From Lytechinus pictus (Eukaryota), in assembly GCF_037042905.1 (NCBI RefSeq), contig NC_087245.1, positions 16,928,001 through 16,992,000 of the forward strand: 64,000 nt of DNA, in the 5' to 3' direction. The first letter of the stretch is position 1. Each line of letters starts with the position of its first letter. Positions 6,190-63,175 of the stretch are shown in pieces. Made by a program: the position numbers and the translations under genes. The notes beneath the pieces were generated by a model. That model had not been told where the DNA came from. It ran no database searches and saw nothing but the letters and a program-made list of their open reading frames with translations.

Positions 6190-7000
6190 CAGTGCGTCCC
6201 ACAAAAAACGAAACCGAGATTTATCGATGATTTATCATAATTTAATCATAAATACAATAAACAATTGACCTACCATTGTAAAGCTTAGAATCTCCTCTTT
6301 CATCTGAAATTACTTAGATTGTTTCTCGTTCACGCATGAGTGAGCAAAAACAATTTGAAGAGGGGATACAAAAAAGTCATTTGGCGGGCTGTATCTGGGT
6401 TTCAAAAAGATAACCACATTTTTAAAAAGTTCAATATCTGCCCTTTAATTTGATACCTCAATTACAGAAAATGGTCAAGAAATAACAAATTTCTGGTTAT
6501 TTGAAATAAGGCTTGAATTTCAATAATTTCATAAAATCAAGAGGTTCTACAGGCTAGCGTTCAAACACACTTGACACTCCGTTTTGTTGACGATCAGCCA
6601 TGCATTAAGTCTTTTGTTAACCATGCGATAGCTTCTGTGGGAAACCGGTGAAAACACGTTTATTTAATGAAATTATGGAAATACAAGCATTGTTTCGAGG
6701 GAACATAACTTTTTTACTTCTTGACCATTCGTTGTGATTAAGGTATCAAATAAAAGAGCAGATATTGAACTTTTTAGGCATGTGATTTTCTTTTTGAAAT
6801 TCAGATACCCCAGGCCAAATGAGTTTTTGGTATCCTTTCTTCAAATTGTTTTTGCTCACTCATGCGTGAATGGAGATTAATCTAAGTAATATCAGATAAA
6901 AGTAGAGATTCTAAGCTTTACACTGGTAGGTCATTTGTCTATTGTATTTGTGATTAAGTTATGATAGATCATCGCTTTACCTTTTTTCTGGGACGCACTG
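6190..7000. mobile_element. Non-autonomous Tc1/mariner-like element (811 bp)
   Basis: TA|CAGTGCGTCCCA ... TGGGACGCACTG|TA; imperfect inverted repeats extend several hundred bp. Confidence 0.88.
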
Positions 7001-9458: not shown

Positions 9459-23158
<13,700 letters not shown>

Positions 23159-25473: not shown

Positions 25474-26899
25474 TTACTGGGTGGTGGCGAGTGCCTTGAA
25501 TCCTGACCTAGTAATTGAATTGTCGCTGATAAACCTCACATACATGGAGTTCTTGGTGGAAGTTATTGGTGTAGGGATCGTGTTTCCACACACTTTTTCA
25601 AGGTAAGGACCATGCATATCACCATCATGAACCTGTTTGGAAGAAAAAAGGGAAATCTAAAACAATGTTTCAGATAACCGATTAAAGGCCTACGCCAATA
25701 GCTCGTCAGTTGGAAGATAAAAACAAAAGTAATTTCCTCTGAATTTCTTAAACTATCAGTTCTTTCTTTTCTAGATGAATGATTAAAAACGATAGGCAAA
25801 GTATTATTGCTAGTTAGTTATAGGAAGGGAATTAAGATCAGCCTCGATTTTACTCTTACACTTTACTCTTTACACTTAGTAAGGCGGCGCCCATGCAGAG
25901 AGATCACATATCGATATAGATATACCACTGACAAATCAGCGTGCATGATATTGTATTGAACGAGGAAAAATGCCCACCGCTGGATTTCTGTTAGATTGGT
26001 TTTTAATAAACATAAACTAAATCTAGCGATTTGCAACTCTTCAAAAGATTATGGGCAGATGGAGCCAAGATTTAAAACAGGAAAGAGAGAGTTACAAAGG
26101 AACGAGATACCTCTACTGCATCTGCACTGCATGAAACATGATCTTCTATATCGATGTCGTCGAAAGATAGAGTGATAGTCTGACCGACAGGGGCGTGGAT
26201 AGTGAAAGAACAATCAGCATTGTTTCCGTATGTATCAGGGTAGTTGGGCGACGTCAAGAGACTTGTTGCAGAGCTGATAGTACTACCACAAACTGGAAAT
26301 GTGGAAGAAAATAGGGGACGGGGCAAGGAATAGGAAATAGGAAGGGGGAGGGGCAAGGAATAGGGAATAGGAAGGGGAAGGAGAATGTGCATACTTATAG
26401 TTCGAGGTCATAAAGGAATTTGAAGAGAGGTAGGATGATAAGAATATTCAGCATAGACAGAGCAAGAGAGAGTGTGGGTATGAAGAATAGACAGGCAAAT
26501 AGGTAAGAAATAAACAAAATGAAAATGAAAAGATGAAGACGAAAAAAATTAATATTGAAGAGACAGGAGGGGGCGTGAGAGAGGGAGTTAAACAGTGATA
26601 TTCAACATTTCATCTTTATACTGTCGCACGTAATATACATCAATATTTGAATTTTTTTCCTTTTGAATGTGCTTAATCGTACTGAATGTCGTGTTTTTTG
26701 TTAATCTATCGACGAAATCACATTTGAATGGTGGTATTTCAGGTGTGCATTTCAGTAGCTGCATATTACCACACTTTAGGTAGTGTAGATGTAATAAGTA
26801 CATTTCTTAACGTATTTCTATTAAAATTATTCTTACACACATTATTGTTACACACCTCCGATCTCTAAAGTTTGGTAGGACGCAGAGAAGCCTCTCTTC
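25474..26899 (-). pseudogene. Gene C 3' part: end of the interrupted exon 9 plus CUB2 exons, separated from the rest of the gene by the 18.8-kb insertion
   Basis: Exon 9 remainder 26893-26856 (..RGFSASYQTLEIG, GT donor), exon 26292-26111 (CGSTISSATSLLTSPNYP..), exon 25632-25474 (VHDGDMHGPYLEKVCG..TTQ*). Sizes 182/159 match genes B and D. Confidence 0.92.
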
Positions 26900-29800
26900 T
26901 ATGAGGCGCCGAATGTACCAATATTATATAGAACAATTATTTGTTATATAATCATTATTTATTAAATAATAACTATTATTTATATATAATTTACATTTTA
27001 TTTGTAAATAACTACTATTATATAAAATATCATTTCTAATTATTTATATATAATTCCAAGTAATACTTCATTATTTGTAAATAATAATAGTTCGACATTC
27101 CATTATTTATAAATAATGATTATTTGTTTTTCATTATTTATAAATAATGATTATTTGTTTTTCATTATTTATAAATAATGATTATTTGTTTTTCATTATT
27201 TATAAATAATGATTATTTGTTTTTCATTATTTATATATAATGATTATTTGTTTTTCATTATTTACAAATAATGATTATTTGTTTTTCATTATTTATAAAT
27301 AATGATTATTTGTTTTTCATTATTTATAAATAATGATTATTTGTTTTTCATTATTTACAAATAATGATTATTTGTTTTTCATTATTTATAAATAATGATT
27401 ATTTGTTTTTCATTATTTATAAATAATTTGTTGAGTTTTCCATTATTTATAAATAATGATTATTTGTTAAATAATGAAAACGTCTACTTCATTATTTATA
27501 AATAATTTTTTCGAGTGCACCATTATTCTCATTATTTATAAATAATCATTATTTAATGTTCGAGTTTTCCATTATTTATAAATAAAGATTATTTGTTAAA
27601 TAATGCCATTATTTATTAAATAATGCCATTATTTATTAAATAATGCCATTATTTATTAAATAATGGAAAACTCGCTATAACATGCAAATGTGGGACCGCC
27701 CATGATATGAATATTCATGATGCGATTTCCTTTTTCGTGATTTTTCTTCACAAATTTTTGTCCATTTCCTCTTCATAATGACATTTCTTGAAGCAATTTT
27801 CTAGGGATATGGTCTGATTGTAATATTCTTCATTTTCTATATAACTTCGTCTTCGTAGAAATATCAAAAAGTGTAATTTTATACGATTTTTCCTACAGTT
27901 CACAATCCCCATAGGCGCGCGTGTACGGTAGGGACAACCGGTGAATCGACGGAGTGCTCTTCATCGAAATACTACGTTGGTTGGTCCCCGGAAGTGGCGG
28001 GCGGAATTTAGCCCGAATCCTCGATGGAAGTCGATCAAGTGCATATGAGCTGAGAGAGTGAAATATCAGTGTACTTGTACAGGCCCTTCTACTTTTTATA
28101 AATATTTCTTGTTGCTTTTTTGGTTAAGTTAATTTTTCCTGGTGTAGAGATAAGTTTCAGTTCTAATAATGCACTTCAAATACATTTTGGAGTGTCTGTT
28201 TGAGGCGTTTGGGGCGATTTCACCCTGGCCCCAAAATGCTCGCAACGACAATACGGGGGCATGATGACCCCTAATTTTTTAAAAACTTATTTTTCTATTG
28301 AAAATTATCACAAAATTCACCAAAAGTGTGCACGAAAGCCTTCGTATTTCACTTTTAAAACTCCAAAAAGTGCCCAAATGACAAGCTTGGTCGCTTCGCT
28401 GTGTCGCTTTCAACTTGAGAACGTTTACGCGTCTGCTTCCCCCCCCCCCCCCCCCTCCTCCGAAAGAAATTCTGTATACGGCCATGCTCTAAAGAGCCTG
28501 GCACATTGATTTATGTATACTTCATTTTCATTATTTTTATCTCATTATCATCATGGCCTTACGCAGAATTTTTTCCGGGGGGGGGGGGGGTGGGGGGAGC
28601 AGGACGCGCGTAAACTTTCTCATAAAAATCTTGAGAAAGCGAAGCGACCAAGCTTGTCATTTGAGCTTGGTCGCGTCGCTGTCTCGCTTTCAAGATTTTT
28701 TTGAGAAACTTTACGCGCGTCCTAGCTGCCCCCCCCCCCCCCCGGTAAAAATTCTGTGTAAGGCCATGATGATAATGTGATAAAAATAATGAAAATGAAG
28801 TATACATAAATCAATGTGCCAGGCTCTTTAGAGCATGGCCGTATACAGAATTTCTTTCGGAGGAGGGGGGGGGGGAAGCAGCCCTGATAGCAGACACGGT
28901 CGTAATGACGTCATTAACTGATCGTAAAGTGGTAATACTCGTCATGTCGTCGTATTTATGACGTTCTTACGACGTCATTTTGACGACTTAGAATGGCAAC
29001 TTTCATTTGCATTTTTATTTGACCAGATTATGACGTGATTTCGACGTCATTTACTGACCAATTTACGACAAGTAAATTTGCTCGCTTATAATGACCAGAT
29101 TATGACGTGATTACGACGCCATTTACTGACCAATTTACGACAAGTAAATTTGCTTTCTTATATGACCAGATTATTACGTGATTACGACGTCATTTATCGA
29201 CCAATCTGCAACAAATGAATTTGCATTTTTATATGACCACATTATGACGTGATTATGACATCATTTATTTACCAAACAACGACAAAGAAATTTGCGTTTT
29301 CATATGACCACATTACGACGTGATTATGACATCAAATTTTACCAATCAACGACGAGGAAATTTAGCCACATACTATTTTGCCATTTTTTCAACCTTGCCA
29401 TGTTAGCAGGGCTATTTCTACTTATAAAAGGAAAAGTAAAACTAAAAAAAAATAGTACAGATTTTTTTTTATTTTAGGTAAAGTATGTAATTCTTCAAAG
29501 AAAAAAGTTTCAAAAGCAGTGGCAAAAATAATCATTTCTTAACTGGTTGCCAACCAAACCAAACAAGAGGAAGCTTTATATGTCAAAGAAGTTTGTATCT
29601 GTTTTAAAACTTTTTTTTTCGCAAGTGGTGTCATGCCCCGGTGTCATGCAAACCCCCTATCTAGTTAGCTCACCCCCCCCCCCCATGCACGCCCCCCGGG
29701 CTCACCCCCTATAAAAAATTCATGATCCTCAGAATTAATTCGCCGCCGCCGGGCGTCGAGCCTGCGCATGCGCGCTGCACTGCATGCAACTTAACTGGCG

Positions 29801-30160
29801 CAGTCTAGTCGCAACCATTTAATTTGAAAAAGGAAAGTGCCCGTTTTTCGCCGTTAAATGTTGCAGCCTAATTTTGGATCGAGAATTAAGTGCGACGAAG
29901 ATGGCCGTTAATAATAGTTCTACTACTTTAAGAACACGATTCAGATTTGGATAACGACTTCGAAGGCATTCGCAGGAGACCACACAGTAAGTTAGATAAC
30001 CATCTTCTAAGATTTTCTTTTCGGAGCGCGGCTTGCCTTTGGCTTTAGATTTCGTGCACTGACACTGCCCGGCCGGGGTGGCTGCCCCGAGCGCCGGCAT
30101 GCTGAATAGGACAGGCTGCGCTGGTCACGTACGTTCACCGACTATAGGCTATGTATCAAC

Positions 30161-33073
30161 CATAGAGATGTATACTAACTACGCTAGAGTGCGGAGTCGC
30201 CATAGGCGCGCGTACTTAACGTCTGTGATTGTGTGGAGCGTGGCGGCCATTGCTCGATAGGTATAGATTCGCAAAAGTACCCGGATGTACCCATAGCTCG
30301 TGCGTTGTAACGCTGTGAAAAGGGGTGCCGTCTCCGGCCTTTTTCTTGAAGAAAAGAACACAACCTCATAAAAATCGAAAATATGAATGACAAATTGCAT
30401 TTCAATACACTATTAGAGTGATTACATGGGGATTATGCTATTAATTTGGCATTTTAAAAACCTGATTTCTCGGGATGAAATTCTAAATAATTTGCATTTA
30501 CCTGTCCGTTTATAGGCCTGTAATAGATAACAATGTTGATATACTATCATATAAACAATCATATAAAAATAAAAACATACAGCGGACATTAATAGAAAGA
30601 TTGACAATTAATTCAAAAGACTGCAGTGAATTAGCCCTTCTCTGGATTTCCCTACCTTTAACTGCATCGTCCTCCTTCCATCCTTCCCACATTTACGTCC
30701 TTTGATTCTATGTTTATGTTGGATATAATTTTGTAATTTCTATATAGGCCTACATGATATGTAACTTGCTTTAATTTGTATGAAATATAGGCCTATCATT
30801 TTTATATATTAAGTTGTACAATATTTCTGTATAAGTTAGTGTTTTGATCTACATGCGCTATTAAAGGGCATCTCATTGTTGTTCTTGGTGAGCCTCCCGT
30901 TACACCATCAATGTTGAAATTTGTGTTATTTGGTGAACGTGCTGATTTTGTTCTTATAGAAACATAATGAATTCCCCAAAATCTGCAGGCCTATATGGCC
31001 CGAAAATAAAATATTGATTTAAAATGTCGAGAATATAGCCTAATTTGTTCAAACTTTTCAAAAATGACAGTTTTAATTCCCTTCACTTTAAGTTAGATTT
31101 GTTTTAATTCGCTTTTTAGGGGCCGTGTGTGCAATTAAAATAACAAACACACCTAAGCAAATTCGCTTTAACATACTGATCAAAATAAAATACAGGGGGC
31201 GCGACCGGACCCCTCCCTGAAATGAAAATGAACATTACACATAATAAATGATTGTGATTTTATGCACCCCATCACTTTCAAAATCATTCCGCGACGCCGT
31301 AATTAACATAATATAATAATTTTGTTCATCCATGGAAATCTTATTTAAAAAAAACTGATCGAATAACCAAACTCAGGTCCATAGGCCAGCAAATGACATT
31401 AAAGGAAGAAAACTAGAAAATCAAATTCAGTTATACTTTTAAAATGAAAAACAAAACTGGATATTCAAAACGCGTGTTTATCTGTTTATATGTTAGGCCG
31501 GTGCCAGTGCTTACAAATATTTGCCATAAAGTTCATTTATTCAAGCGACACAGACACAGTTAATTAACACAATTTCAAGGCAGGTATCAAATTTGAGATT
31601 AAATTAGGATTTTTAATATCTTATTCCAAGTATTGTCACTTTTGCAATATTATTGTTTCATAATTATGTTTGGTTTTAGTACTCACAATTTTGCAACGGT
31701 TTTCATAATTATGATAAGTTTGCATTGATGTCTTTCATGATATTAGTTTTATACACTCTTGCAGTAGTAATAATATTCTTTATAGTATAATACAAATTAT
31801 ATATCATAATCCCGCCCCTTTTCTTCTCTCCTTCTCCCCCTTCTTCCCCTCCTTATTATTCTATCCTTGATTTGTTCACATGATATTGGTCCAATCATTA
31901 TAGGATCAGAAACAACGGCGATAAACAAAATATTTCAGCCAGTTTGCCGATCAGCATATTTTCAGCCGGGGAGAATCAAGTCTATACTTTCCAGAAAATC
32001 AAAGTAAAATTGTTTTGCGCATTGTGATTTGTTTACTCTCCGAAGTTTTAAAATGTTTGCAAGGCAATAACACTGTACATAAACATCCAACCCCCCATTA
32101 GGCCTCCTGTACATTGCAAAATTGTACGACTGCATGCGCGCATTTGATATGCAAATTTTGCTGTCAACAAACTTTTCTATACATTGATCGCAAGTAAGAA
32201 AGTATACTTTTATATACATATTTATAAATATGATGGGATGGTTGCCAGCAAAGGAAATCTAAATCATCAAGTTTTAACTGAATCAATGCGTAAATCATTT
32301 CCAAATATCAATAAAAAGTCATTTTATGATTCGCGAGTTTTTGTGATGTTGGTTTACATCAGCGTGTAAGACATGGGGAAAAGGGATCGAGTTATTATAG
32401 GCCCTATTGTGTAGATATATATGGAAAATGAATTATAACAATTATCTAAAGTGAAGAAATAGATTATCAGCAATCAGCATAATAGTAATTAGGAAACTAT
32501 GAACTATAAAAATACAATCGTGGTTTTTTTTTCGATACAGCGTCTCAGATGCATCAGACACTGTGATATGGCCTATGAATTTTCTTAGGTTAATGTACAT
32601 CAAATCATATTAAAACACATTAAATTTATTTATCAGGACCTAGGCCTAAATGTTATTTTTGATATTCATCTCTTCCAAATCATTAGAAAATAGAAGTCAT
32701 ATTAATGTATCGAAATTTTACCTAAGCAAAAACAATTGGGACTTTAAATCGTTTGCCTGTATTATAGCTGTATCGGCCTATATTATGCGCTATAGATAGG
32801 CCTATATAGGCCTTTTGACCTCAGTTTTGCTAGATTTTTGTTGTATTTGAACTTTAATCCAGTGCAATATTTACAATTTTGCTTTTCCATATGCTTTCGT
32901 GCTCATATGTCATCAATTTGTCATGTTCTGTGCTCATCCGTGTACATGCCCCATAGGTACTGTACGCTCATGGCAGGCTGCGAATACCTATCGAGCAATG
33001 GCGGACGGTCTCCACGTAATCACAGCGATTTGACGAAGTACGCCCTCTAGCGTTACTAGTATACATCTCTATG
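30161..33073. mobile_element. Non-autonomous P- or hAT-type element (2913 bp) inside the CACTA-like element
   Basis: TIR CATAGAGATGTATACTA extending imperfectly for about 100 bp; perfect 8-bp TSD GTATCAAC (30153-30160 / 33074-33081). Confidence 0.85.
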
Positions 33074-33081
33074 GTATCAAC

Positions 33082-35670
33082 TCAGTGGAGCCCGCCATTA
33101 TAAAAGCCCTCTCGCGGTAGGTCGCCTAACAATCTTGTTAGCGACGCCTACGAGCATCTTCTTGCTCACTCTCCAAAATGTCTGCGATATTAAAATCCTA
33201 AAAACTAATGAAATCGTTTAAATTTAGTAAGACTATGAATGTTTATCATTTATATTGACTATCGGTGTATCAACCTATATCGAAATTATAAGCAAGTGTG
33301 TGTAAGAAGGCGATTTACCAGTCATTTTGATGAGTGATACAATATGCCAAAATTTATGAAAATATAGCGTAAATTTTATATAGCATTTCAAAAATCCTTA
33401 TTTTCAATATCCCCATAATTTTTTGTTGTTTTAAAAAATATCTTATTAGGCCTACATTAACTAGAATTTTCCAGACCTGATAACGTTGGTAGCTTATTTT
33501 CTCCATCATTCATAAGAAAATTTCAGGCCTTCAAAATCGGGTTATTTTTTGTTATATTTCTAAAAGAAAATAGTTAGATTCGAACAACTATACCATTGTT
33601 CTCCCGAAGAAGGGTTATCATCACATAAATTTGTGTATATCATACATAACATTAAATATTACGAGTGTAGCAATCAATGTTGGATAACATTTTTCACGAT
33701 GAGTTACGTAATGAACAGACAAATCAAGTTCATTCTTAGCACACGAGCCGCAGAATGCAAAATTTTAGCGTGTGCAGACGGGGCTGATCGCCCGGGCTGT
33801 CCGTTCAGATTATCCAGTCCGATACTGGAGTCAGGTGGTATATTTCACGTACCTTTTCCCCTCGCGATGACCACTGTGCAGTTTTAGTGTTTTATTTCGA
33901 TACTCAGTCTATGAAATTCATACTTTACCGATGTCTAAAAATACTTGGAATATACCTGACACATAAATTATTTCATTTTCGGTGATTATTATTTCTTTCC
34001 TTAATTACAAAAAGTCAAACTGATGTCAAGAATGTGTAACATTGACTGTATAGTTAAAAATATAGGTTTGGGAAATATCGTGTTAAGTTTGTCCAATGTC
34101 ATCAGCATCTCGGTATATGTTAAACAGAAAATATAAAACAACTATATGTTTTGTAAATTCCACGACCGCCTTTACCATTATGGAACATATGAAGCCAACC
34201 TGCATGACCGCCGGGGGGGGGGGGGGGGGTACTCAAATTATTTGTTAAAATGAAAGTAGTATCAATATTTATAGACCTTCAATATGCCTATTACCAGGCT
34301 CTTGTGATTATAAATTATAATCATGGTGAGTTGGGGGAGTAAAAGGGTTGGATGAAATAGATTGCATGGGGAGGGGTCGAGGCCGAGAGAAAAAAAGAAT
34401 TAAGGGGCCAAAAGGAGATTGCAGGCCGGTAGAATGACAGAGGGTCAAATATTAATAGGGCAAGCTTTATTTGAGAGCTTGACCATAACAGGAGGGAAGG
34501 AAAAATACAAGACAGTGGAAATTTAAATAGGGAGAGCTGATCTTTGAGATATATAATGGCACGAAAGCAAAAACAAAGAAAGAGAGAACAGGGAGATAAA
34601 GGAGGAGGAGAAGCCCTTGCAATTAAAATGTATCAAACACACTTGGCTGGGGCGGCAGTGAGCACGGTGAGATGATTACCCCCCCCCCCCCCTCCCTCTA
34701 CCACCTCGTCAGTCTCAGTAGCAGAGAAAGGGGACTAATGATTGACTTTTTGTGATTCATGCAGGTCGAAAGAAATGATAATTCTCAAAAATGAAATCAT
34801 TCATGTGTCAGGTATATTAGAGCATTTTTAGATATCGGTAAACTATTCATTTCACAGATTAAGTATCAACATTAAGCACTATAAAACTGGACAGTGGTCA
34901 TCGTGGAATATACCACCCGAAACCAGCATGACCAGTATGGGACTAGATAATCCCGTCCGACACACTAGGGATCAGCCCCGTCTGCGCACGCTAAAATTTA
35001 TCATTCTGCGGCTCGCGTGCCAAGAATGAACTTGATTTTTTCTCTTCATTACAAAACTCATCGTGAAAAAGATTATCTAACATGGATTACTACACTCCTA
35101 AAATGAATTGATATGTATCATTTACACAACAATACGAGATGATAACCCTCATTCGGGCGTACAGTTGGTATAGTAGTTCGAATCTAACAATTTTCTGTTA
35201 GAAATATAACAATAATTAACCTGATTTTGAAGGTCTGGCATTTCCTCATAAAGCCGAGAAACAGTAATCTATTAACGTTATCAGGTCGGGAAAATTCTGG
35301 TAAATGTAATAAGATATTTTTTTAAACAACAAAAAATTATGGGGATATTGAAAATAAGGATTTTGAAATGCTATATAAAATTTACGCTATATTTTCATAA
35401 ATTTTTGCACTTTGCATCACTCATCAAAATGACTGATAATTCGTAATATAACAGGCAATTGCCATTAAATTCGGTATGAGTTTGTACACCGATAGTCAGT
35501 GTAAATGATAAACATTCATAGCCTTACTAAATTTGAATAATTCCATCAGTTTGTAGGATTTTAATATCGCAGACATTATGGAGATTGAGCCAAACGATGC
35601 TAACAGGCGTTGCTAACAGGGTTGCTAGGCCCGAAAATCCGATTAAGCTCCGCCCACTTTTTACACTGAG
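33082..35670. repeat. Old, diverged long inverted repeat (arms about 33082-34000 and 34768-35670)
   Basis: Colinear reverse-complement matches, e.g. AATGTCTGCGATATTAAAATCCTA / TAGGATTTTAATATCGCAGACATT and GCGTAAATTTTATATAGCATTTC / GAAATGCTATATAAAATTTACGC; true termini and TSD not resolved. Confidence 0.85.
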
Positions 35671-35738
35671 TTGGAGGGATTAACGTACGTGTGGTGGGCT
35701 CAGGGCCCAAGTCTGCACAGACACAGTGCACACTTTAA

Positions 35739-36063
35739 GGTAAATGCCAGTTGTGGTAACGATATCAAAATGAGTTCGTACAGAATCCAATGAAATGACC
35801 ACCAAAGTGTCTGTCTATGACTATATTTATAAATAGTATACCGTATGTGCCAAAGGATTCTGGAAGAAATTGTGTAATTGCTGCGAAATAAGCAAAAAAA
35901 GCACAGGATTCGGGTCAATTCGAGCCCGGGCCGACATTAATCAGAGCAATAAAAAATAACTGTCCCACGTGCTCTTATCTGTGTTGGTGATCTTCAGTTT
36001 GAACATTTTTCAGTGTAGATTTCAAGATTTCACAAAGTTCAGTTTATGTAACTGTACCAGATC
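35739..36063 (+). mobile_element. TTAA-flanked (Kolobok-like) repeat fragment, interrupted by the next element
   Basis: Begins TTAA GGTAAATGCCAG; similar to 42030-42316 and 40813-41039; resumes at about 37595. Confidence 0.5.
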
Positions 36064-37592
36064 TAGTACATGTATGGTGAGACTACCACATATCGACCAC
36101 CTCTTTTGAAACCGACCACCTTGCGCGCGTTAAAATAATTGCGTATTACAAACGATACGCGCGGGAGAGTAGGCGCAGTGTCCATAGAAACGGTATGAAT
36201 CACTCCTAGTACCAATGAGGTCCAACATTACATGTATGGACCTCATAGGCGACATCAGTAGTATTTTTGGTTAGAAATCTCTGAGAACAGGATATTTATA
36301 TATTATATCACAAGTACAAGCTATATTCCTTTCTCTTATTTAAATTATAATTTTATAGTGTAAATGCATCGTTAGCAACAACAAAAAATGAAAGAAATGA
36401 AGGGGAACTTACATTTTCACGGCTTTTTCCTGATTTTCTGGGCAGCTGCTCTTCTCTTCTGACTCGCGATCGAAGCTGATATGAAGATCACGTGATTCTC
36501 GTTCTCGTCAGCTGATCGGTTGGTTATTCTTTTCGTCAGACGTTAATAATATATATTTTATAATGCTAGCATTCATCGCTAATTTAGGTGAAAGAGATTG
36601 AAGTTAAACAGCGCCAGGTCGGAATCATAATTATTTTGGAAGAGTGTATTTATACACTCGATCTCATACCTAACGTAGACGGCGCTATTCAACAAATGCA
36701 CAATCTTCAATATAAAAAATAAAACAGAAAGAACGCCTTGAACACAGGCCAAAATGCCTAACGATTTCTCCGCGGCATTAACAACTATCGTAAAGGGCGC
36801 TCCATTTATCAATAAAGATGGATGCTAAGCTGTCTATGGCGACAAAATTTGCCACAAATATTTACGAAGAATTGTGAGAAATGGTCTGAAAATGCAACAA
36901 AAGAACCGGTGAGTACCGATTAAACATTATCAATTTATTTAATAGAACATATTTAATGACTACAATGTAACAATTTCTAGATAATATTGCTTAGTTCTAA
37001 GCTAGGGCGGCCCAAATGCGCGTGAGTGGAGTCCCAGTTTATTAGCATGGGTAAGTATTGGGGTGTCGCCTAGAGTGGTATGAATCGATTTTACGAGAAA
37101 AAAAGAAGCAACAAAAAGTAAAAATTTAGTAGAATTAATCAAAATTGTATTGACCAGACCCAAACCCCGCTGAAACACCAAGAAATCCGATAGGAAACGG
37201 CTTTAGAACAAATATCCGTCGTCAATCGTCGAATCATGTGCCGGAGCTCGCAGTGGAAGTAGAGACGATCATTTAGCGTGTTTACATCATAGAACTGATT
37301 TGGAAGAGTAAAAATATTTCGCCACCGCGACAAGAATCGGCCGTAAACTTAGTGTATCGCGGGTGGTCGGTTTCAAAAGACGGGTGCAAATGAGCAAATG
37401 TAAAATCGTCGTATTCATTTTTCGTCGATATATACGCGGATTGAATCAGAGTCGCCGAGCGAAACATGGGAATCTGATCTGCTCAATTTTCTGCACAAAT
37501 GAGACGAAAACTGGGTAAAATTGATGAATATTTTCGCAGATACGATGCTTAGAAGATTAGGTGGTCGATAAGGGGTACTTCCAACCATACTA
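36064..37592. mobile_element. TIR element with TAG termini (Academ-like, tentative)
   Basis: Left TAG(TACATG)TATGGTGAGACTACCACATATCGACCACCT vs reverse complement of the right end TAGTATGGTTGGAAGTACCCCTTATCGACCACCT; interrupts CCAGATC|TAGATCC; TSD unclear. Confidence 0.55.
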
Positions 37593-37633
37593 TGTAGATC
37601 CTCGATGATATACCGTACTGACAATTTTTTTAA

Positions 37634-38407
37634 TCCTAAATCTACCGGGGTATTTTGATTCTTGTTATTCCTGGGGGGGGGGGGGTATTATTGCCCCCCC
37701 CCCCCTTATAAGATCTCGGCCGTGGATTGCACGATCACAACGAAAATTTGCATGATGGTAGAGAATGACGTAATCTACGTAGTTGCATTGGTAAATTTCA
37801 CTGAATTCATATTTTTTATTTTATATATGAATTAATTATGCTAATTTATTCATGAGATCATACTTTTTGCTCTGATTCACTAAATAAAGCTCCTAGAATG
37901 CTATTTTTTGGGTGAAAATATTCTTTATAGCATTCCTAACAATTGTGAATGAAAAAAAATCTGGTACCGAGACCGATTTCTTATGTATTTTATTTTTTTT
38001 TAAATCATGTATTTCTTTGTTTTTTTACATTTTGTTTTTTATTGTATTTTCGATGGAAATCGTTCTAGACTTAATTCTAATCATAAACAAGGCAAAATTA
38101 ATTAAGTTTAATCAGTAAAAGTAGAAATAATGATAAATTTATGAATTTTGGCTAAATACACAATTTGCATTGGATTTGTACATGAAATCATGTTTATGAG
38201 CAATTTTGGGTCTGACATGCACTTACATAATGTTGCGTAATGTCGTAACCGCGTACCCGGGCGTCACAAATTTGGTCTCAAAATTTGCGCGAGACTTGAA
38301 AGTAAAAAGTCAGTGAGCGGCGCGATCAAAATTTTTTGCGCGACAGCGTAGTGATGAAATTTGTTGGGGGGGGGGGTCAAATTGACCCCCCCCCAGTTTA
38401 ATAAGGG
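37634..38407. mobile_element. TTAA-flanked piggyBac-like MITE
   Basis: TTAA at 37630-37633 and 38408-38411; ends TCCT../..AAGGG with G/C-run hairpins near each end. Confidence 0.55.
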
Positions 38408-38509
38408 TTAAGGCCGTCTCATGAAATGCCCTATATTCATTATTTTTCTACCAAAAGCACCATTTTGAGTAAGATTTTTAATGAATAGATCTGTTTGACA
38501 TTTCAGGAG

Positions 38510-38697
38510 AAAGAGAGGGAGACACAAAACCACCTGTCTCGGTGTCACACATGAGGAGTTGAGGAGGAGATGAAGTCAGTGAATATGACCTGGCCTGGGG
38601 GAGTTTCCAGAAGAAGGCCCAGAATCGCTGGATGCCAGGAGTGGAGATCCTTCGTTGCTGCCCTACATGATAGGAGGCATCGGGCAGTAGGTAAGTT
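38510..38697 (+). mobile_element. Decayed 3' end of an RTE-clade LINE
   Basis: Broken translation ..EEEMKSVNMTW..QEWRSFVAAL.. resembles the C-terminus of RTE ORFs, ending in a GTAG/GTAAG tail. Confidence 0.65.
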
Positions 38698-40073
38698 AGA
38701 AGGCTATTTCAGATGTAAAGCCTTTTTTTTGGGGGGGGGGGATCATTGGGAATCTCTATTATCAGAATCACGCAGATTTGGGTGTGCACAAACTCGGGGC
38801 ACCTTATAATCTGTTAATGGTCCTGACTATACTTCGAGGACTCTGTGATATTTTTTCATTGTATTTTCATTCACGGAGCCTAGACAAGTCTCTGTTGCAT
38901 GTAGAACTTTGTACACTAAGATGGATTTCCCTAGAAAATCCACCCTTCCCACAATAATTTTGGGGCAAACATTTAATTTGTCCAATTTGTAAGCTTTTGT
39001 ACTCTAAATGCATACAAAGGCTTTAAAAATGTTAATTGATGGAAGGTAAAAATTTTGAAGGATCACTTTCTTACAATTCCCACGCTATATAACGCAATGA
39101 CATGAACTTTAACTCGAGTGACGTACGTATGCAAGAAATACAGAATTGGTGCACATGCATAGCTGATTGATTCATTGTGCTAGTACTGGTACTAGATCGG
39201 TTTGGACGTTCTAATTTCAATGACAAGTTTAGATGGTAAATTGGCGCTAATAAAATTTTGCATTGGTCGATCTCGCGATGCCAGAAAACTAATTCCACCT
39301 CAAAATTTGTCAGATTTTTTTTGCAAAATATATATTTAATTGATCCTTGACCTGAATTTAAGCCAAATCAGGCATAGGGAATGGCTGTATTTCAGCCTCG
39401 AAGTTCGAATTCTCGGTCCTGACAGTCCTGGTTACCCCATAACCATTTAAAACACATAAAAAAGGCATGAATTAAAATTGTAATTATAAAAAAATAATAT
39501 GTTTTATGTGTCAAATAAATTGATTCTAAAATTTCCTTCCTTATACAGAGATGGTTAAAGGTCTTGAGGGCATCATGCCCCCCCCCCCCCCCGACTTGAC
39601 TTAACATGTTAATATTTGAAGTATAAAATATGTAACAAACCCCACATCGTTTTTTAATCATTTAAAATAAATTTAAAATAGTTTTTAATGAAGATTAATA
39701 AATAGTTTATGTAGAAAAAGTTTTTATGTTTCTCCTCTTCTGTTATTTTTGCAGATGCTGTAATTTGAAACGGAAGGTGTCCTGCCAATAAATTTTCATC
39801 CCACCTGAACTGCCTTGCCTGCCTGCACCCAGTCATCTGTTCCTGAGCATTTTCATTTTCCTCTATTTTTCATCATCGTTTGTTTCGGCCTGTATGAAGT
39901 GAATTTCACATTGATTGGTGGAGCTGCTAAGTTGGCATTACAGGGCCACGCCGGGGTATGATCCTTTGGGTTGAACATCATGACTGCTAGTTGGTCGGCA
40001 AAGGTGATGGGATCGATCAATGTCACATGGAGTAAGATCGATACCAATCTGCTTTGCTACATTTCGAACAATC

Positions 40074-40469
40074 TCATACGGATACGGATATTATTGCGAC
40101 AGGAGTACTGCTCGATGTGGTCAAGCCTATTTGACAAAGCATTATGGTGTTAGTCATGTTATCAGAAACCGATTTTTCAAAATCACGGAGTTGCTTCAAT
40201 TTATTATCGATAGATATTTCAAGAACATGTAGACTAGTGAGCTTTTCATCAAGAATTTCATGCAATTTATTTTCGCGCTTATCCATGTCATCATTGAGTT
40301 TTTGTCTCTCGCGTTCCATTGCCACGGCCACCGCTCTTTGAACGACTGTATCAATATGATCTAGGTATGCTGGGCTTTGTTTAGATCCAGTTAATGATGA
40401 AGCAGAGGATTGTGTACATGCGTTAGCCGAGTGCAAGCGGCCTCTTGATCTGGTGGATATCTTAGACAT
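40074..40469 (-). other. 131-aa ORF with coiled-coil-like segment, possibly a truncated LINE ORF1 start
   Basis: Basic/Ser-rich N-terminus followed by heptad-like VVQRAVAVAMERERQKLNDDMDKRENKLHEILDEKLTSLHVLEISIDNKLKQLRDFE; no downstream ORF2. Confidence 0.4.
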
Positions 40470-41039
40470 GTTAGAGATTATGTAATGATATAATTGAAAA
40501 GTGGGATGGGCTGTGCATCTGCCAACTCACCAGTCAACCAATTAGAGACGGCCTTCCAAAGTGACACAGCACGAAAATATCAATATGGGACTGGTCTAGT
40601 CAACACATACATGTAGATCCTGAAAAAACCATGGAGACCGCAGACGCAAAATGACTTCCATACATAAAGATATGATGCACAATCTCCAGTGGGTTCAAAA
40701 CACTGAACACATGCTATGCTGATACACAGACTATCATAAGAACTTTATCAAGCAAAGGAAATCTGGTATGAAATCTCTCAGCTCACATAAAAAGCCTACG
40801 TAGCTACATGTAGGGAAGAAAATGCGTAATTGCTGAGAAATGAGCAAAATAAGCATGTAATTATATCAAATGTCAGGTATTTTTCGAATCGATTATAATA
40901 CACTGTCCCACATATGCTTTTCTGTGTTTACAGCGATCATCAGAATTATCGATTTTAAGTTTAAAAATTCATGATTTTACAAAGATACAAGTTTACATTA
41001 ATGTACCAGATGTAGATTATGTACAATATATTGACAATT

Positions 41040-41774
41040 CTCGCTACCCCAAATAGCGATTTCGCCGAGATCCGGGAAAATCCCTGTAACGTGCATTGCA
41101 TTATGGGATAGCTTTTTCGGTATTACAACTTCCTGTTCGGAAGTCCAACGCACTGTTTTGCCATTTAGATCAACAGTGCCGTCATGCACAACAACACAAC
41201 GTAGCTTTCGCTCGGAAAGTTCGTGATCACAACCCTCTCTTTCACTAACAGTTTTACAGCCTTTTCTGCTAAAGTCACTAATTCTGCCTGACGCTTTCCA
41301 TTGCACGGTATTCATCTGTCAGTTAAGATTTTTTTAAGTTCCGAAACTGATTTTTATCCATTTTGTGGTCGACGAAAAATTGAACGAAATGAATGCTGAA
41401 TATATTTAGTGTCTAGTTGAATACGATCGTGATGTCAGGCCGGTCGCTAAATGCAAAATTTTAAGATATTCATTATTTGTTTGATTTTTTTATAACCAAA
41501 TAAAAACATGAATAAAAATTATACTCACGTGAAATATATTTTTTATTTTTATTTATAATTCAAATGGAATCAAAACTGACCAAATGTAATAAAAAGTATT
41601 ATACTCTGTACATATTACGCTGATTGGCATCGATTTCAGCGTGGTGGAAAACTCAGTATCGCGAACCTTGCGCGAGCATGACTCTAAACCGGAAGTGGTG
41701 ATGACGACCCGACGGAGTGAAAATTATCTCGTCTCGCGCATTATGAGATTTTTGTTCCTATTTGGGGTAGCGAG
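41040..41774. mobile_element. 735-bp MITE with 4-bp AATT TSD (Sola1-like, tentative)
   Basis: 17-bp TIR CTCGCTACCCCAAATAG; empty site GACAATTAAC in the duplicate at about 42762. Confidence 0.8.
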
Positions 41775-42316
41775 AATTAACTTTGATTTTATAGATTTTC
41801 TCAAGAAATAATTGTTTGCTGCAACTACTGTCTATTCCTTCTAAGTGATAGTGTAATACAACAGTTCCACAAACTATTTTCATCAGACTTATTGATGCAT
41901 GATTCTTTCACCCAAATGCAAGCTTCCATAAATCCTGAAAACTTTGCAACTCAGGTATTTTTTTTTTTACATACAGTATATTTTTTCCTACATTACATAG
42001 TTGCCTTAAGTTAATAGCGCACCTCTAGTAGTAACTATCTTAAAATGAGTTCGAACAGAATCCAACAGAATTACCAGCAAAGTGTATGTATATATAAAAG
42101 ATGTGTGCCAAAAAGCTCGGGAAGAAAATGTGTAATTGCTGAGAAATGAGCAAAATAAGCATGTAATTCTATCAAATGTCGGGTATTTTTCAAATCAATC
42201 ATAATACACTGTCCTGTCCCACATATGCTTTTCTGTGTTAGTGATCATCAGAATTATTGATTTTAAGATCAAAATTCATGATTTTACAAAGATACAAGTT
42301 TACATTAATTTACCAG

Positions 42317-42735
42317 GGCCCCGTCTTACAAAGAGTTATGATTGATCCGATCAATCGCAACTATGGACGGTCAGCAACGTTAACATCTATTAAGCATGTT
42401 TGTTCAAAATATTTTCTAGCTATGATGTATGTTCATGCATTCATTGTTTTCTCAAAAATTCGCTGCGTTTCTCTTTGCATACAAAGGACATTGTGCAAAT
42501 TTTTCGTAGAAAAATATTATGACACTGATGGATTTCCATAGAGTTATGATTGATCGGATCAATCGTAACTCTTTGTAAGACAGGGCCCAGGGGTCCGTTG
42601 CAGAAAGAGTTGCTCTTAAACGCAAGTAAAAAAATCAATCGCAAGTCCCAAATGCGCGCTGTTGATTGGTTGAAAATCAAGTTGCGCATGATTTTTAGAG
42701 TTGCGATTGATTGCAACTCTTTCTGCAACGGGTCC
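42317..42735. mobile_element. Two abutting Harbinger/Tourist-like MITEs (42317-42587 and 42591-42735)
   Basis: CAG at 42314, 42588 and 42736; empty site TACCAGAT in the duplicate at about 41004; clear TIRs on each. Confidence 0.85.
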
Positions 42736-45673
42736 CAGATCTAGATTATGTACAATATTTTGACAATTAACCTTAATTTAAAAGACTTTCCGAAGAAATA
42801 ATTGTTTGCTGCAACTACTGTCTTTTACCCCTGGCCCTAAGTGATAGTGTAATACAACCCAAACATTTCATAAGAATTAATGTACATGTATGATTCTTTC
42901 ACCCAAATGCGAGCTTCCATAAATCCTGAAACTATTCCAACTCGGGTATTTTTTTTTTACATACAGTATATTTTTACCTACATTACATAGTTGTCTAAAG
43001 TTGAAGGTATATTTAATTACAATTTCAACGAAAAAGCTTTATTCTTGGAGATCATTATGCCTCTGTTATGTATTAATGTGTATTTATACATGATGTACAA
43101 TTGTATGTATTGCCTTGGTATAACAAACATTGTAATTTCATTCCTTTGACCCTAATACTGCATTTTCATAGAAAAGTGTTTTTTTTTCAATCTATTTAGA
43201 GTTTTCAACATTTTGTATTCCTTTTTTTTTTTGCTGGTAATATGTTATGCAACTTTTATTTATTAATAGAATATTTGCCACGATTTCGTAATTGAAATGC
43301 GTACATGTATTTGATTTCGTTTTCCATTTTTGTATATATTCTTTTTCGGGGGGGGGGGGGGGTCATGTTCTTGAGACCGAGACAAGTTATGCAAGGCCCT
43401 GGCATGGAGGATCATTATATTGTTACTGGGAATGCTGGACATTGTCTGACCACCTCAGTATTCACCAAATATAGATAATCCTCAATGACAAGGTCTTTGA
43501 AGTGATGTGTGTATGTACATTGCATGTAGAATTTAATGTTTAGGTCATTATCACGTCAGAATACGTTAAGATATCATAGTTGACTCCAAAAGACGTCATA
43601 TTCATTTCAATATGCGACGTCAATATGACGTCTATTACTAGTCAGCAATATGTTGCAAAGTCGTCATTCAGACGTCGTAGTTGACTTATAAAGACGTCAT
43701 AATTACATCAATATGACGTCTGAAACTGGTCAGGAATACGTCGCAAAGTTGTCATTAAGACGTCGTAGATGACTTTTAAAGACGTCATAATTACATCAAT
43801 ATGACGTCTAAAACCGGTCAGGAACACGTTGCACGGATGTCATTAAGACGTCGTTGTTGACTCTCGAAGACGTCATAATCACGTCAATACACGACGTCAA
43901 TCTGACCCTTGATACTGGTCAGGAAAACGTTGTAAAAACGTTGCTAAGACGTCATTAAGACGTCGTAGTCACTCTTGGAGACGTCATAATGACGTCAATA
44001 TACGACGTCATAATGACGTTATTCGCGGGTGCAAGATCCCGTCAATAAGACGTCATGTTACGACGTCAAAATGACGTGACACTCGTCGTTAAACTGACGT
44101 AATTATGACGTCATTTTTACCAGTTTCTGCTATCAGGGAGACGCGTAAACGTTCTCAAGTTGAAAGCGACACAGCGAAGCGACCAAGCTTGTCATTTGGG
44201 CACTTTTTGGAGTTTTAAAAGTGAAATACGAAGGCTTTCGTGCACACTTTTGGTGAATTTTGTGATAATTTTCAATAGAAAAATAAGTTTTTAAAAAATT
44301 AGGGGTCATCATGCCCCCGTATTGTCGTTGCGAGCATTTTGGGGCCAGGGTGAAATCGCCCCAAACGCCTCAAACAGACACTCCAAAATGTATTTGAAGT
44401 GCATTATTAGAACTGAAACTTATCTCTACACCAGGAAAAATTAACTTAACCAAAAAAGCAACAAGAAATATTTATAAAAAGTAGAAGGGCCTGTACAAGT
44501 ACACTGATATTTCACTCTCTCAGCTCATATGCACTTGATCGACTTCCATCGAGGATTCGGGCTAAATTCCGCCCGCCACTTCCGGGGACCAACCAACGTA
44601 GTATTTCGATGAAGAGCACTCCGTCGATTCACCGGTTGTCCCTACCGTACACGCGCGCCTATGGGGATTGTGAACTGTAGGAAAAATCGTATAAAATTAC
44701 ACTTTTTGATATTTCTACGAAGACGAAGTTATATAGAAAATGAAGAATATTACAATCAGACCATATCCCTAGAAAATTGCTTCAAGAAATGTCATTATGA
44801 AGAGGAAATGGACAAAAATTTGTGAAGAAAAATCACGAAAAAGGAAATCGCATCATGAATATTCATATCATGGGCGGTCCCACATTTGCATGTTATAGCG
44901 AGTTTTCCATTATTTAATAAATAATGGCATTATTTAATAAATAATGGCATTATTTAATAAATAATGGCATTATTTAACAAATAATCTTTATTTATAAATA
45001 ATGGAAAACTCGAACATTAAATAATGATTATTTATAAATAATGAGAATTATGGTGCACTCGAAAAAATTATTTATAAATAATGAAGTAGACGTTTTCATT
45101 ATTTAACAAATAATCATTATTTATAAATAATGGAAAACTCAACAAATTATTTATAAATAATGAAAAACAAATAATCATTATTTATAAATAATGAAAAACA
45201 AATAATCATTATTTGTAAATAATGAAAAACAAATAATCATTATTTATAAATAATGAAAAACAAATAATCATTATTTATAAATAATGAAAAACAAATAATC
45301 ATTATTTGTAAATAATGAAAAACAAATAATCATTATATATAAATAATGAAAAACAAATAATCATTATTTATAAATAATGAAAAACAAATAATCATTATTT
45401 ATAAATAATGAAAAACAAATAATCATTATTTATAAATAATGAAAAACAAATAATCATTATTTATAAATAATGGAATGTCGAACTATTATCATTTACAAAT
45501 AATGAAGTATTACTTGGAATTATATATAAATAATTAGAAATGATATTTTATATAATAGTAGTTATTTACAAATAAAATGTAAATTATATATCAATAATAG
45601 TTATTATTTAACAAATAATGATTATATAACAAATAATTGTTCTATATAATATTGGTACATTCGGCGCCTCATA

Positions 45674-53579
<7,906 letters not shown>

Positions 53580-59991: not shown

Positions 59992-61889
59992 TTATTCCAT
60001 TTTGGAGATTGCCTTGAATCCTGACCTAGTAACTGAATTGTCGCTGATAAACCTCACATACATGGAGTTCTTGGTGGAAGTAATTGGTGAAGGGATCGTG
60101 CTTCCACACACCTTTTCAAGGTAAGGACCATGCATATCACCATCATGAACCTGTTGGAATGACGTCATAGATGGGTTAGAGAATACTTCAGTATATAACT
60201 ACATCACTTCATCACCACATGTATAGTCAAAGTAATTGCTGCCTATTTGTTTCAAGACAGTATCGCAAAGTCTCAGCAAATCTAACGATTCATCATTTTC
60301 AAAGTTTGAATTCATACTAGATTAAATGAAAGAGTATTACCATAAACACAAATTGTCAGACAGATTCAATCTAAAATATTGCAAGAATGGAATGGGGGCA
60401 CTGGAAATGTGTGGTGGATGGGCAAATGTGAATCTTTATAATGTAAAAAGGATGCAGAAAAAGAAAACTCTGAAAATCATCTGTGTTTTATTATAACTTT
60501 TTAAAAATGACATATTATTGGAACACATAATATGTGTGTTTTTTTTTTTTGGTAAAGCTCATAAAGACATAGATACATACTTTTACGCATGAGAAAGTAA
60601 CAGCTGGTTGAAGAAGAGATACCCCCAAAACGGCGGATGGTTAAAAATACATGCATATACCTCTACCATATAAAATAAACAAGGAATAGCAATAGCAATA
60701 TCCCTGTGGTTTTTTTTTTTTTTTTTGGGGGGGGGGGGTAATAATGGTTGGGCCATGACCTTGGATTTGTATTCCAAAGAAACTTTTTTTTTTTACAATG
60801 TTGGCTTTGATTAATATTGATTTAATTCAACTGATTGAAACTATCTATGAGGCTTTGCCAAGACCATGGTGGGACAAGGTAAGAGACAGATAACCATAAG
60901 AAATGCAACAAGATAAAATACCTCTACTGCATCTGAACTGCACGAAACATGATCTTCTATATCGATATCGTCGAACGTTAAGGTGATAGTCTGACCGACA
61001 GGGGCGTGGATAGTGAAAGAACAATCAGCATTATTTCCATAATTATCAGGGTAGTTGGGTGACGTCAACAGAGCTACGGAAGAGCTGATTATACCACCAC
61101 AAACTGGGTTATATCGGAAAGAGATGAATTGATAGGAAAATTGATGAATTGATTTCATTCAAATCATGTCGCACAGCCACAAACTGAAATGAACATGAAT
61201 TACGTAAAAAAAGAATCTGAAGATACAAATTGATACAGCATTTGATATTCCCTTTTCTACCCCCGCCCCCGCACCAGGGACTGCATCGATCTGTGTGAAG
61301 AACTGCATCTGAATCTATGTGACTCGTTACCACAATAGATCAAGTACCAATGGTCAATTTATCCATTTATCTACAACCATGAGAACGGTGAGAAAATAAA
61401 ATACTGAGCATGATTGATGTACATTACAATACATGGTTCAAACCCCAGCTGCGTCAGACCAAAAGACATTAAAAGATGGGAGTTGCTGCTACCCTGTTTG
61501 GCGTTCAACTATTAAAGGGATAGAGCCGTGTCGATCTGGCGCTGCACGGCCCATGATCAATTGGGCAAAGCAAGTATTTCATTTCATGTCTATTTCGAAC
61601 AATAAAAAAAAATATGGATTTAAATTCAACAGTAATCTTTCAATTTTCAGGTTCTCGGAGATATCCATTTAATTATCTATATACAGCTATATTTATAAGA
61701 TCTTCATTTTGCTCACATACCTCCCAACTCTATAATGTCGTAATTTGCAGAAAAGCCTCCACCTGTAATGATAAAATCACTTTCAAAAACCAGTAACATG
61801 TTTGGACCAGTGCTTGTCAAATCACCAGGAAGAGTGGTGCCACACAGTTTACCCAGCACATGGTCGCTCGGGCTGGCTCCATCATATAC
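59992..61889 (-). CDS. Gene D: last three exons (second half of CUB1, CUB2) of a further paralogue; upstream exons lie beyond the window
   Basis: Exons 61889-61721 (169 nt, VYDGASPSDHVLGKLCG..GFSANY), 61103-60922 (182 nt), 60150-59992 (159 nt, ..KME*); same sizes and phases as gene C exons 9-11. The protease domain is inferred, not seen. Confidence 0.9.
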
Positions 61890-62162: not shown

Positions 62163-63175
62163 AACAAGTGGAATGCCTCACCTGCATCACGCGATTCAAT
62201 ATAGCAGCAGTGCTGACTTTGAAAAACAACCTTTTAATAATTATTCACAAAAAACACCATTCAAATGATACAATACTACGTTCATTGACATTTGACCTTG
62301 ATAATGTGACCTAAAACTTGTCAGTGATACTTGATTACCCCTATATCCACATTTTATACACTATATCTATAAACTTTGAAAGTTATGACAGCAATCTAAT
62401 AATTACCTCTAAAATGGCCAAAGTTCAATGACCTTAAATGACCTTTGACTTTGGTCATGTGACCTGAAACTCACATGAGATGTTCAGTGATACTTGACGA
62501 CTCTTATGTCCAAGTTTTATGAACTAGACCAATATACTTTCAGAGTTATGATGGTAATTCAACAAATACCCCCAACATGGCCAATATCCATTGACCTTTG
62601 ACCTTGGTCATGTGACCTGAAACTCGCACAAGATGTTCAGTGATACTTGGTTACTCTTATGTCCACGTTTTATGATCTAGACCAATACACTTACAGAGAT
62701 ATGATGGTAATTCAACAACAAAAAACCAACATGGCCAAAGTTCATTGACCCTAAATGACCTTTGACCTTGGTCATGTGACGTGAAACTCTTGCAGGATGT
62801 TCAGTAATACTTGATTAACCTTATGTCCAAGTTTCATGAACTAGGTCCATATATTTTCTAAGTTATGATGACATTTCAAAAACTTAACCTTAGGTTAAGA
62901 TTTTGATGTTGATTCCCCCAACATGGTCTAAGTTCATTGACCCTAAATGACCTTTGACCTTGGTCATGTGACATGAAACTCAGGCAGGATGTTCAGTAAT
63001 ACTTGATTAACCTTATGGCCAAGTTTCATGAACTAGGTCCATACACTTTCTAAGTTATGCTGTCATTTCAAAAACTTATCCTTCGGTTAAGATTTGGTGT
63101 TGACGCCGCCGCCGCCGTCGGAAAAGCGGCGCCTATAGTCTCACTCTGCTACATGTATGTAGGTGAGACAAAAAA
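62163..63175 (-). mobile_element. Helentron-associated (HINE/pearl-like) non-autonomous element with internal tandem array
   Basis: Subterminal inverted repeat TCACCTGCAT / ATGTAGGTGA, hairpin GTCTCAC..GTGAGAC, (GCC)n microsatellite, central 150-185-bp repeats built on GACCTTTGACCTTGGTCATGTGAC, A/T-run flanks, no TSD. Confidence 0.75.

Follow-up and report, generated by a model that had tools for sequence, protein, structure and literature searches.

Animal TRC elements have CCC termini and duplicate 2 bp of target sequence (target site duplication, TSD), insert into other repeats and give spliced transcripts from truncated copies, according to the parts of the reports that treat them (PMC1636069, PMC4298943). 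The ends of CACTA elements are defined by a short terminal inverted repeat (TIR) and several hundred bases of subterminal repeats (PMC8978399). We analysed a 64,000-nucleotide stretch of the Lytechinus pictus genome (contig NC_087245.1, positions 16,928,001 to 16,992,000; hereafter the window), where a 15-kb element of this kind, here called the carrier, lies within a foldback element (foldback B) that interrupts an exon encoding a CUB domain (Table 1). With confidence slightly better than even, we read the carrier as a recent copy from a non-autonomous, CACTA/TRC-like family that has long persisted and has gathered inserts in its body.

The carrier shares the CCC...GGG ends and 2-bp TSD quoted for SmTRC1 and the Tribolium and Aedes elements (PMC1636069) and for Hydra Spongebob/EnSpm-4N1_HM (PMC4298943), and its 13-bp TIR followed by 71-bp and 88-bp arrays has the layout of CACTA ends. 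It differs from the animal TRC elements as quoted there in its length (15.3 kb versus 5.2–9.2 kb), in a body that is a stack of nested inserts, and in that no Transposase_21 was found. By analogy, the carrier would work like a non-autonomous TRC element. The Repbase rule for non-autonomous elements, as excerpted in PMC4455052, asks for the same TSD length and for bases 1–11 within one mismatch of a classified element; compared by eye with the quoted Tribolium TIR (PMC1636069), bases 1–11 of the carrier matched at nine of 11 positions, with two mismatches where the rule allows one. Since CACTA elements of 16–20 kb are known, namely the En/Spm elements quoted for Chondrus (PMC6431247), along with a soybean element given as 20.5 kb (PMC2613891), 15 kb is within the size range of the superfamily; these large elements are described with open reading frames (ORFs), whereas the carrier has none. 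Narrow literature searches returned no description of this element family or of nested foldback composites in sea urchins.

The carrier is bounded by exact ends. AG flanks it on both sides and occurs once at the corresponding point of foldback A, a sister copy in the window that lacks the carrier and represents the empty site; the 2-bp TSD given in the preliminary description is thus borne out. As a chance control, we counted 13-bp TIRs beginning with CCC and flanked by a 2-bp TSD, in pairs 5–30 kb apart, in 20 shuffles of the window. No pair was found in any shuffle, and the real window held seven, namely six mirror positions in the foldback arms and the carrier itself. Because TIR and TSD lie exactly at the empty site of foldback A, the ends of the 15-kb unit itself mediated its entry, and since it has its own TSD the carrier is able to move alone. 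The TIRs had been called crisp, which holds for the perfect 13 bp at 28882 and 44138, but past them the two ends are ~20% apart. The CpG-rich subterminal arrays reported earlier were recovered as 4.6 copies of the 71-bp unit on the left (85%) and 3.1 copies of the 88-bp unit on the right (86%), with observed/expected (o/e) CpG ratios of 2.06 and 2.01 versus 0.74–0.76 in the window flanks. Retained CpGs were rejected as evidence of youth: they are part of the repeat motif, a few decayed variants occur, and invertebrate repeats are often unmethylated.

The carrier was compared with contigs of other samples from four of 17 runs (X1, X2, X12 and X13), with 254 records in X1 and 4,421–53,116 in the other three, and with 15 of 560 joints listed. 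Foldback arms are hard to assemble and no contig bridging either junction was among those listed, which leaves room for an assembly error that joined 15 kb of unrelated sequence into the foldback; this is barely credible, as a mis-join would not yield a 13-bp TIR and duplicate 2 bp at precisely the position of the empty site.

The exon split by foldback B belongs to a minus-strand gene for a subtilisin and CUB protease. With foldback B removed it forms a single continuous open frame, in whose right half the CUB domain of Pfam was recognised. We take the outer element to resemble the TU foldback elements of sea urchins in having arms with short tandem arrays. Both copies, A and B, have a 6-bp TSD, which together with the long TIRs and the initial TATG gives a resemblance to IS3EU, whose fungal termini are given in the relevant part of PMC12730594 as TAYGG..CCRTA; the foldback termini match four of the five bases of TAYGG and differ at the fifth, and that consensus is fungal whereas the host here is an animal.

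The arms of foldback B differed at 4 of 1533 positions (0.26%; 26900–28434 versus 44139–45673), in agreement with the near-identical arms described before, and those of foldback A by 0.32% (12053–13640 versus 14330–15880). Between A and B, 7/755 and 7/749 positions of the non-repeat arms differed (~0.93%). Arms are thus about three times closer within one foldback than between the two, suggesting some homogenisation within elements; because within-element identity overstates youth, the A–B distance of 0.9% is the safer age bound. The carrier lies in the right half of foldback B, and it presumably entered the B lineage after the A–B split, unless A lost a carrier without trace. A ~282-bp unit, repeated in both direct and inverted orientation, makes up the foldback centre, with three units in A and two in B (13561–14350; 28372–28881), and the carrier was inserted in the last unit of B.

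Such homogenisation would also suit an account in which everything decayed in place, an old foldback having its arms gene-converted while inserts piled up on site. We regard this as very improbable. Conversion between arms cannot explain the 0.9% distance to a separate copy or the 0.4–0.6% distance to contigs of other samples (4/671 and 3/691 differences in a foldback arm, among the records listed), and the interrupted exon keeps its open frame and the TSD is perfect. It is doubtful that the complete 18.8-kb foldback, already holding the carrier, made the final move into the exon, a step compatible with either origin of the cargo considered below. The perfect 6-bp TSD and the intact ends do enclose the entire 18.8 kb, but the sister foldback is without a carrier, the carrier's own TSD shows solo mobility and, as a weak point, no contig joining foldback and carrier was among those listed. 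Joint movement of the composite, if it occurred, would make this a rarer kind of event, in which an element of one superfamily is carried by another.

The carrier had been described as transposase-less, and the scans agree. No Pfam family exceeded the cut-off in 150 of the 156 stop-to-stop frames of at least 42 amino acids (aa), the other six lying at borders, or in 24 read-through frames from four backbone stretches; one of the 150 frames gave a weak zinc-finger match below the cut-off (E 0.0099). An Rfam search of 26800–45800 returned no matches. Because no Transposase_21-type gene was among the scanned frames, the carrier is not an autonomous CACTA/TRC member. The one coding remnant found in the interior, where Pfam revealed no captured host-gene fragment, resembles ORF1 of a long interspersed nuclear element (LINE) and was missing from the cargo listed previously. 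Its first 106 aa share 75% identity with an intact 279-aa protein whose neighbours in a protein atlas are L1-related and baculovirus-FP-domain clusters. This placement fits LINE ORF1, a label that we presume from the atlas and a motif; Pfam gave no family at cut-off for proteins P0001 and P0002. The RTE fragment named in the earlier cargo list (~38555–38710) carries what we take to be a C-terminal RTE motif, but it drew no Pfam hit and had no homolog among 25 candidates, and this identity was dropped.

Table 1 Features of the carrier, the two foldbacks and the predicted transcript (positions in the window)
Feature	Position	Strand	Remarks
Foldback A, sister without carrier	12053–15880		6-bp TSD TTAAAC; intronic, within a paralogous protease gene
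Left 6-bp TSD of foldback B	26894–26899	+	CTCTTC; within the CUB-domain exon
Foldback B	26900–45673		18,774 bp; TATGAGG...CCTCATA ends; arms hold AT-rich 31-bp arrays
Carrier element	28882–44138		15,257 bp; CCC...GGG ends; perfect 13-bp TIR; 2-bp TSD AG (28880–28881, 44139–44140)
Carrier left end	28882–29363	+	TIR and 71-bp subterminal array; CpG-rich
CpG-rich promoter-like stretch and putative non-coding exon 1	29720–29986	+	donor at 29987
P-like insert	30161–33073		2,913 bp; perfect 8-bp TSD; 17-bp TIR; young
Old inverted-repeat element	33124–35630		arms 33124–34018 and 34742–35630
TTAA-flanked element hosting two deeper levels	35735–37640		end approximate
TAG-end insert	36064–37595		1,532 bp, counting any duplication; no clean TSD
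8-bp-TSD insert	36201–37077		CAC...GTG ends; perfect TSD; young; deepest level
Abundant repeat ending at TTAA	37641–38410		borders approximate
Putative exon 2	38507–38690	+	184 nucleotides; splice motifs; includes the unconfirmed RTE-like fragment
Putative exon 3	39755–40843	+	acceptor at 39754; end provisional; antisense to ORF remnant
Decayed LINE-ORF1-like remnant	39836–40469	-	frameshifted over three frames
Two direct copies, TTAA-type element end and ~240 bp	40813–43006	+	40813–42016 and 42119–43006
Insert with perfect TIR	41040–41774		4-bp TSD AATT
Two adjacent miniature inverted-repeat transposable elements (MITEs)	42314–42738		42314–42590 and ~42589–42738
Carrier right end	43560–44138	-	88-bp subterminal array and TIR; CpG-rich
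Right 6-bp TSD of foldback B	45674–45679	+	CUB exon resumes and runs to ~45840

The interior of the carrier is nested to a depth of at least five levels, one more than the minimum of four proposed before, with the 8-bp-TSD element inside the TAG-end element, this inside the TTAA-type element, and the last inside the carrier within the foldback. Empty sites were present in contigs of other samples. Among the joints listed, 36191>37077 (skipping 885 letters) occurred in all four runs, 36063>37596 in one of the four (X2), and 41035>41775 (skipping 739) and 42585>42734 in two of the four each.

Parts of this interior are old. The arms of the 0.9-kb inverted repeat differed by 128 mismatches over 861 columns (14.9%), and leftward past the P-like insert the repeat gave a weak local alignment and no clear extension. 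The two direct copies of the TTAA-type element, inserts excluded, differed by 34 mismatches over 444 columns (7.7%) with 12 gap events, and a third copy was 22% away; this third copy is the TTAA-flanked element at 35735–37640, presumably Kolobok-like, compared with the related copy near 42010. The first MITE was 20% from a copy in a host intron (20551–20850). These values of 7.7%, 14.9%, 20% and 22% exceed the 0.9% bound between foldbacks A and B, which excludes decay at the present site, so this old layer arrived as a block. The description of the interior as visibly decayed is apt for the inverted repeat and the TTAA-type copies but not for the P/hAT-type insert (presumably P-like, from its CAT...ATG ends), in which 8/8 TSD letters and 17/17 TIR letters match. 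The subterminal arms of that insert are ~11% apart, and its sequence matches other samples at more than 99%.

Contigs of other samples added to the picture of the old layer. Five of the six variant letters listed for other runs in the inverted-repeat arms were the letter of the partner arm, and the arm mismatch is therefore at least partly decay. Run X1 had the letters of the window at four of these six places, so X1 has the same decayed copy at ~2%; contig X1-4 differed at 13/621 letters (33459–34079). In the ORF remnant, contig X13-22 spanned 39753–40324 with three differences and no gap, and because it aligns ungapped the frameshifts of the remnant are common to another sample.

A second, young layer was also detected. 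Among the records listed, contigs of three runs differed from the P-like insert at 15/2596, 4/1536 and 8/1603 letters (0.26–0.58%), and from the 8-bp-TSD insert at 3/542, 3/542 and 3/520, so that from sequence comparison both appear as young as the foldback. The P-like contigs could stem from other individuals that have this very carrier; the intact TSD and TIR give independent, modest support for youth. The AATT-TSD insert, with 20/694 differences to an X1 contig, was of intermediate age. The preliminary description had proposed that the cargo is older than its host and was delivered as one block. Both proposals hold for the old layer, 7.7–22% diverged and with a frameshifted ORF, and neither extends to the P-like and 8-bp-TSD inserts, which are as close to their counterparts as the foldback is, an outcome that the description itself had named as one that would refute it.

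If the host is understood as the carrier lineage, the cargo was not found to be older. In a second organism, the right end of the carrier (43662–43805) was present at 92–94% and the ORF remnant (40290–40472) at ~92%, both listed differences of the latter falling on third codon positions. Since the end of the carrier and its old cargo show the same distance there, the carrier lineage looks about as old as the old cargo. The old inserts, said earlier to have accumulated elsewhere, more likely did so inside earlier carrier copies than at a donor locus.

The body of the carrier recurred in the other samples. A 10-kb interior segment was represented by 0.43–0.55 of sampled words in five runs (five samples, two studies) and by 0.05–0.11 in 10 runs labelled as the second organism, and all 30 bins of the carrier were covered in each of the four runs compared. 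Contig X13-17 spanned 29145–29848, from the left array to 485 bases inside it, with eight differences and 64 gap letters. Sequence just inside the arrays, at 29601 and 43447, was common to the four runs, the second organism included. In X1, contig depth was ~4–5 for the backbone, ~7 for the carrier ends, ~9 for the P-like insert and ~100 for the foldback arm. These depths hint at several carrier copies, and more than one copy may well exist, but they were not counted as evidence; depth was rejected as a measure of copy number, there being no single-copy flank for calibration, an RNA-like character of X12 and X13 and an odd record count in X1. Coverage gaps (X1 at 33026–33458; X12 and X13 at 35111) were likewise not used.

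The shared sequence inside the arrays bears on how the cargo was acquired. In a Pack-type capture, a shorter CACTA-like element would have taken up a repeat-rich chromosomal block of ~10–14 kb in one event, by template switch, by gap filling or through loss of the facing ends of two adjacent copies, and then jumped. Pack-CACTA elements of Arabidopsis (PMC6379663) and animal Pack-TIRs (PMC8277862) are, in the parts cited here, likewise non-autonomous TIR elements with extra internal DNA, and capture is known in both settings. The interior resembles the ordinary repeat-laden DNA of this genome, as the 20%-diverged relative of its MITE illustrates. Capture nonetheless seems to us the less likely origin, though one to be taken seriously. 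The Pack elements differ from the carrier, which has no host-gene fragment by Pfam, and no leftover of the end arrays was seen in its interior. The sequence just inside both arrays is not private to this copy, as the four runs show. The animal screen, as described in PMC8277862, was limited to interiors of up to 5 kb with 3,585 bp as the largest human case, which offers no precedent for an interior of ~14 kb.

A non-coding transcript probably joins an exon at the left end of the carrier to exons in retroelement debris. The stretch 29720–29990, just upstream of the putative first exon, has a CpG o/e of 1.5. At 29764 it contains what we take to be an NRF1-like palindrome, the only copy in the window. 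An X13 contig covering 29939 ends 49 letters from it by inclusive count, hence at 29987 if its nearer end is the right one, and this is the first G of the donor; a contig end there is as expected because the next exon would start with G. At 39753, where contigs of both X12 and X13 begin, lies the AG that the 38690/38691 donor has in common with the 39754 acceptor; upstream of 39753, X13-22 has 210 letters where the exon model predicts 211. Because the longest sense ORF of the predicted spliced unit is 70–87 aa, no coding function is claimed for it. Most nested inserts fall in its putative 8.5-kb first intron. If the transcript is real, the predicted splice links mean that other samples, too, have the left end in cis with the old cargo.

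To return to the long-lived family that accreted its inserts, an ancestor of CACTA/TRC type would have lost its coding genes and kept both ends with their subterminal arrays, the left-end promoter and the short non-coding first exon probably being retained as well. Other elements would have inserted into the carrier body over its history and travelled along. A CACTA-type transposase supplied in trans may then have excised all 15 kb and reinserted the unit in the young foldback, duplicating the AG. The old inserts would predate this jump, though not necessarily the carrier lineage, and the two young inserts would have entered shortly before or after it.

Several points weigh against this history. 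A captured block that later spread also predicts the age contrast, the arm decay and the shared frameshifts, as well as the continuity from array to interior, the splice link and the full bin cover. Transposition efficiency is said to drop above 6 kb of cargo (PMC6431247). In the four runs, no contig spanning the whole unit and none across the foldback–carrier junctions was among those listed, and near-identical contigs could reflect this very insertion shared by other individuals. The first 379 letters of X1-4 do not fit left of 33459 (33080–33458), so related copies differ in structure, with a variant of the inverted-repeat arm. As to the transcript, the exon-offset prediction misses by one letter, the predicted splice joints are absent among the 15 of 560 joints listed, and X12 and X13 are putative RNA runs, as the contig ends on splice sites suggest. 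A stronger version, in which the whole 18.8-kb composite transposes to several loci with two transposase systems alternating and the carrier keeps, across individuals, a spliced non-coding transcript of exonised retroelement debris, we consider improbable.

At this one locus, a 15-kb DNA transposon without an enzyme of its own can bring repeat DNA of old appearance to another place in the genome, in this case a coding exon; the ages of nested inserts therefore do not date the locus. Repeat annotation would break this single insertion into about a dozen unrelated fragments. The opposite trap exists as well, since divergence between the arms of one insert does not necessarily signal age, as in the P-like insert. 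Large non-autonomous CACTA-like elements and nesting are already known, and the gain is a clear example, not a new mechanism.

The surrounding window contains at least three paralogous subtilisin and CUB protease genes, clustered between 755 and 62000 in both orientations. The same foldback family occurs in two of these clustered genes, 11 kb apart, in an intron (A) and an exon (B). Two CUB exons on the same strand and 35 kb apart (26075–26290 and 60895–61101) share 78% protein identity and 88% DNA identity over 190 bp, and by this comparison appear to be a fairly recent gene or exon duplication. Elsewhere in the window, a direct repeat (3245–3544 and 3908–4207) was 100% identical over at least 300 bp with the copies 663 bp apart, an inverted repeat at 6225–6974 had 316-bp arms that were 83% complementary and separated by 118 bp, probably a MITE, and diverged tandem repeats of ~150–190 bp periodicity occupied 62321–63095.

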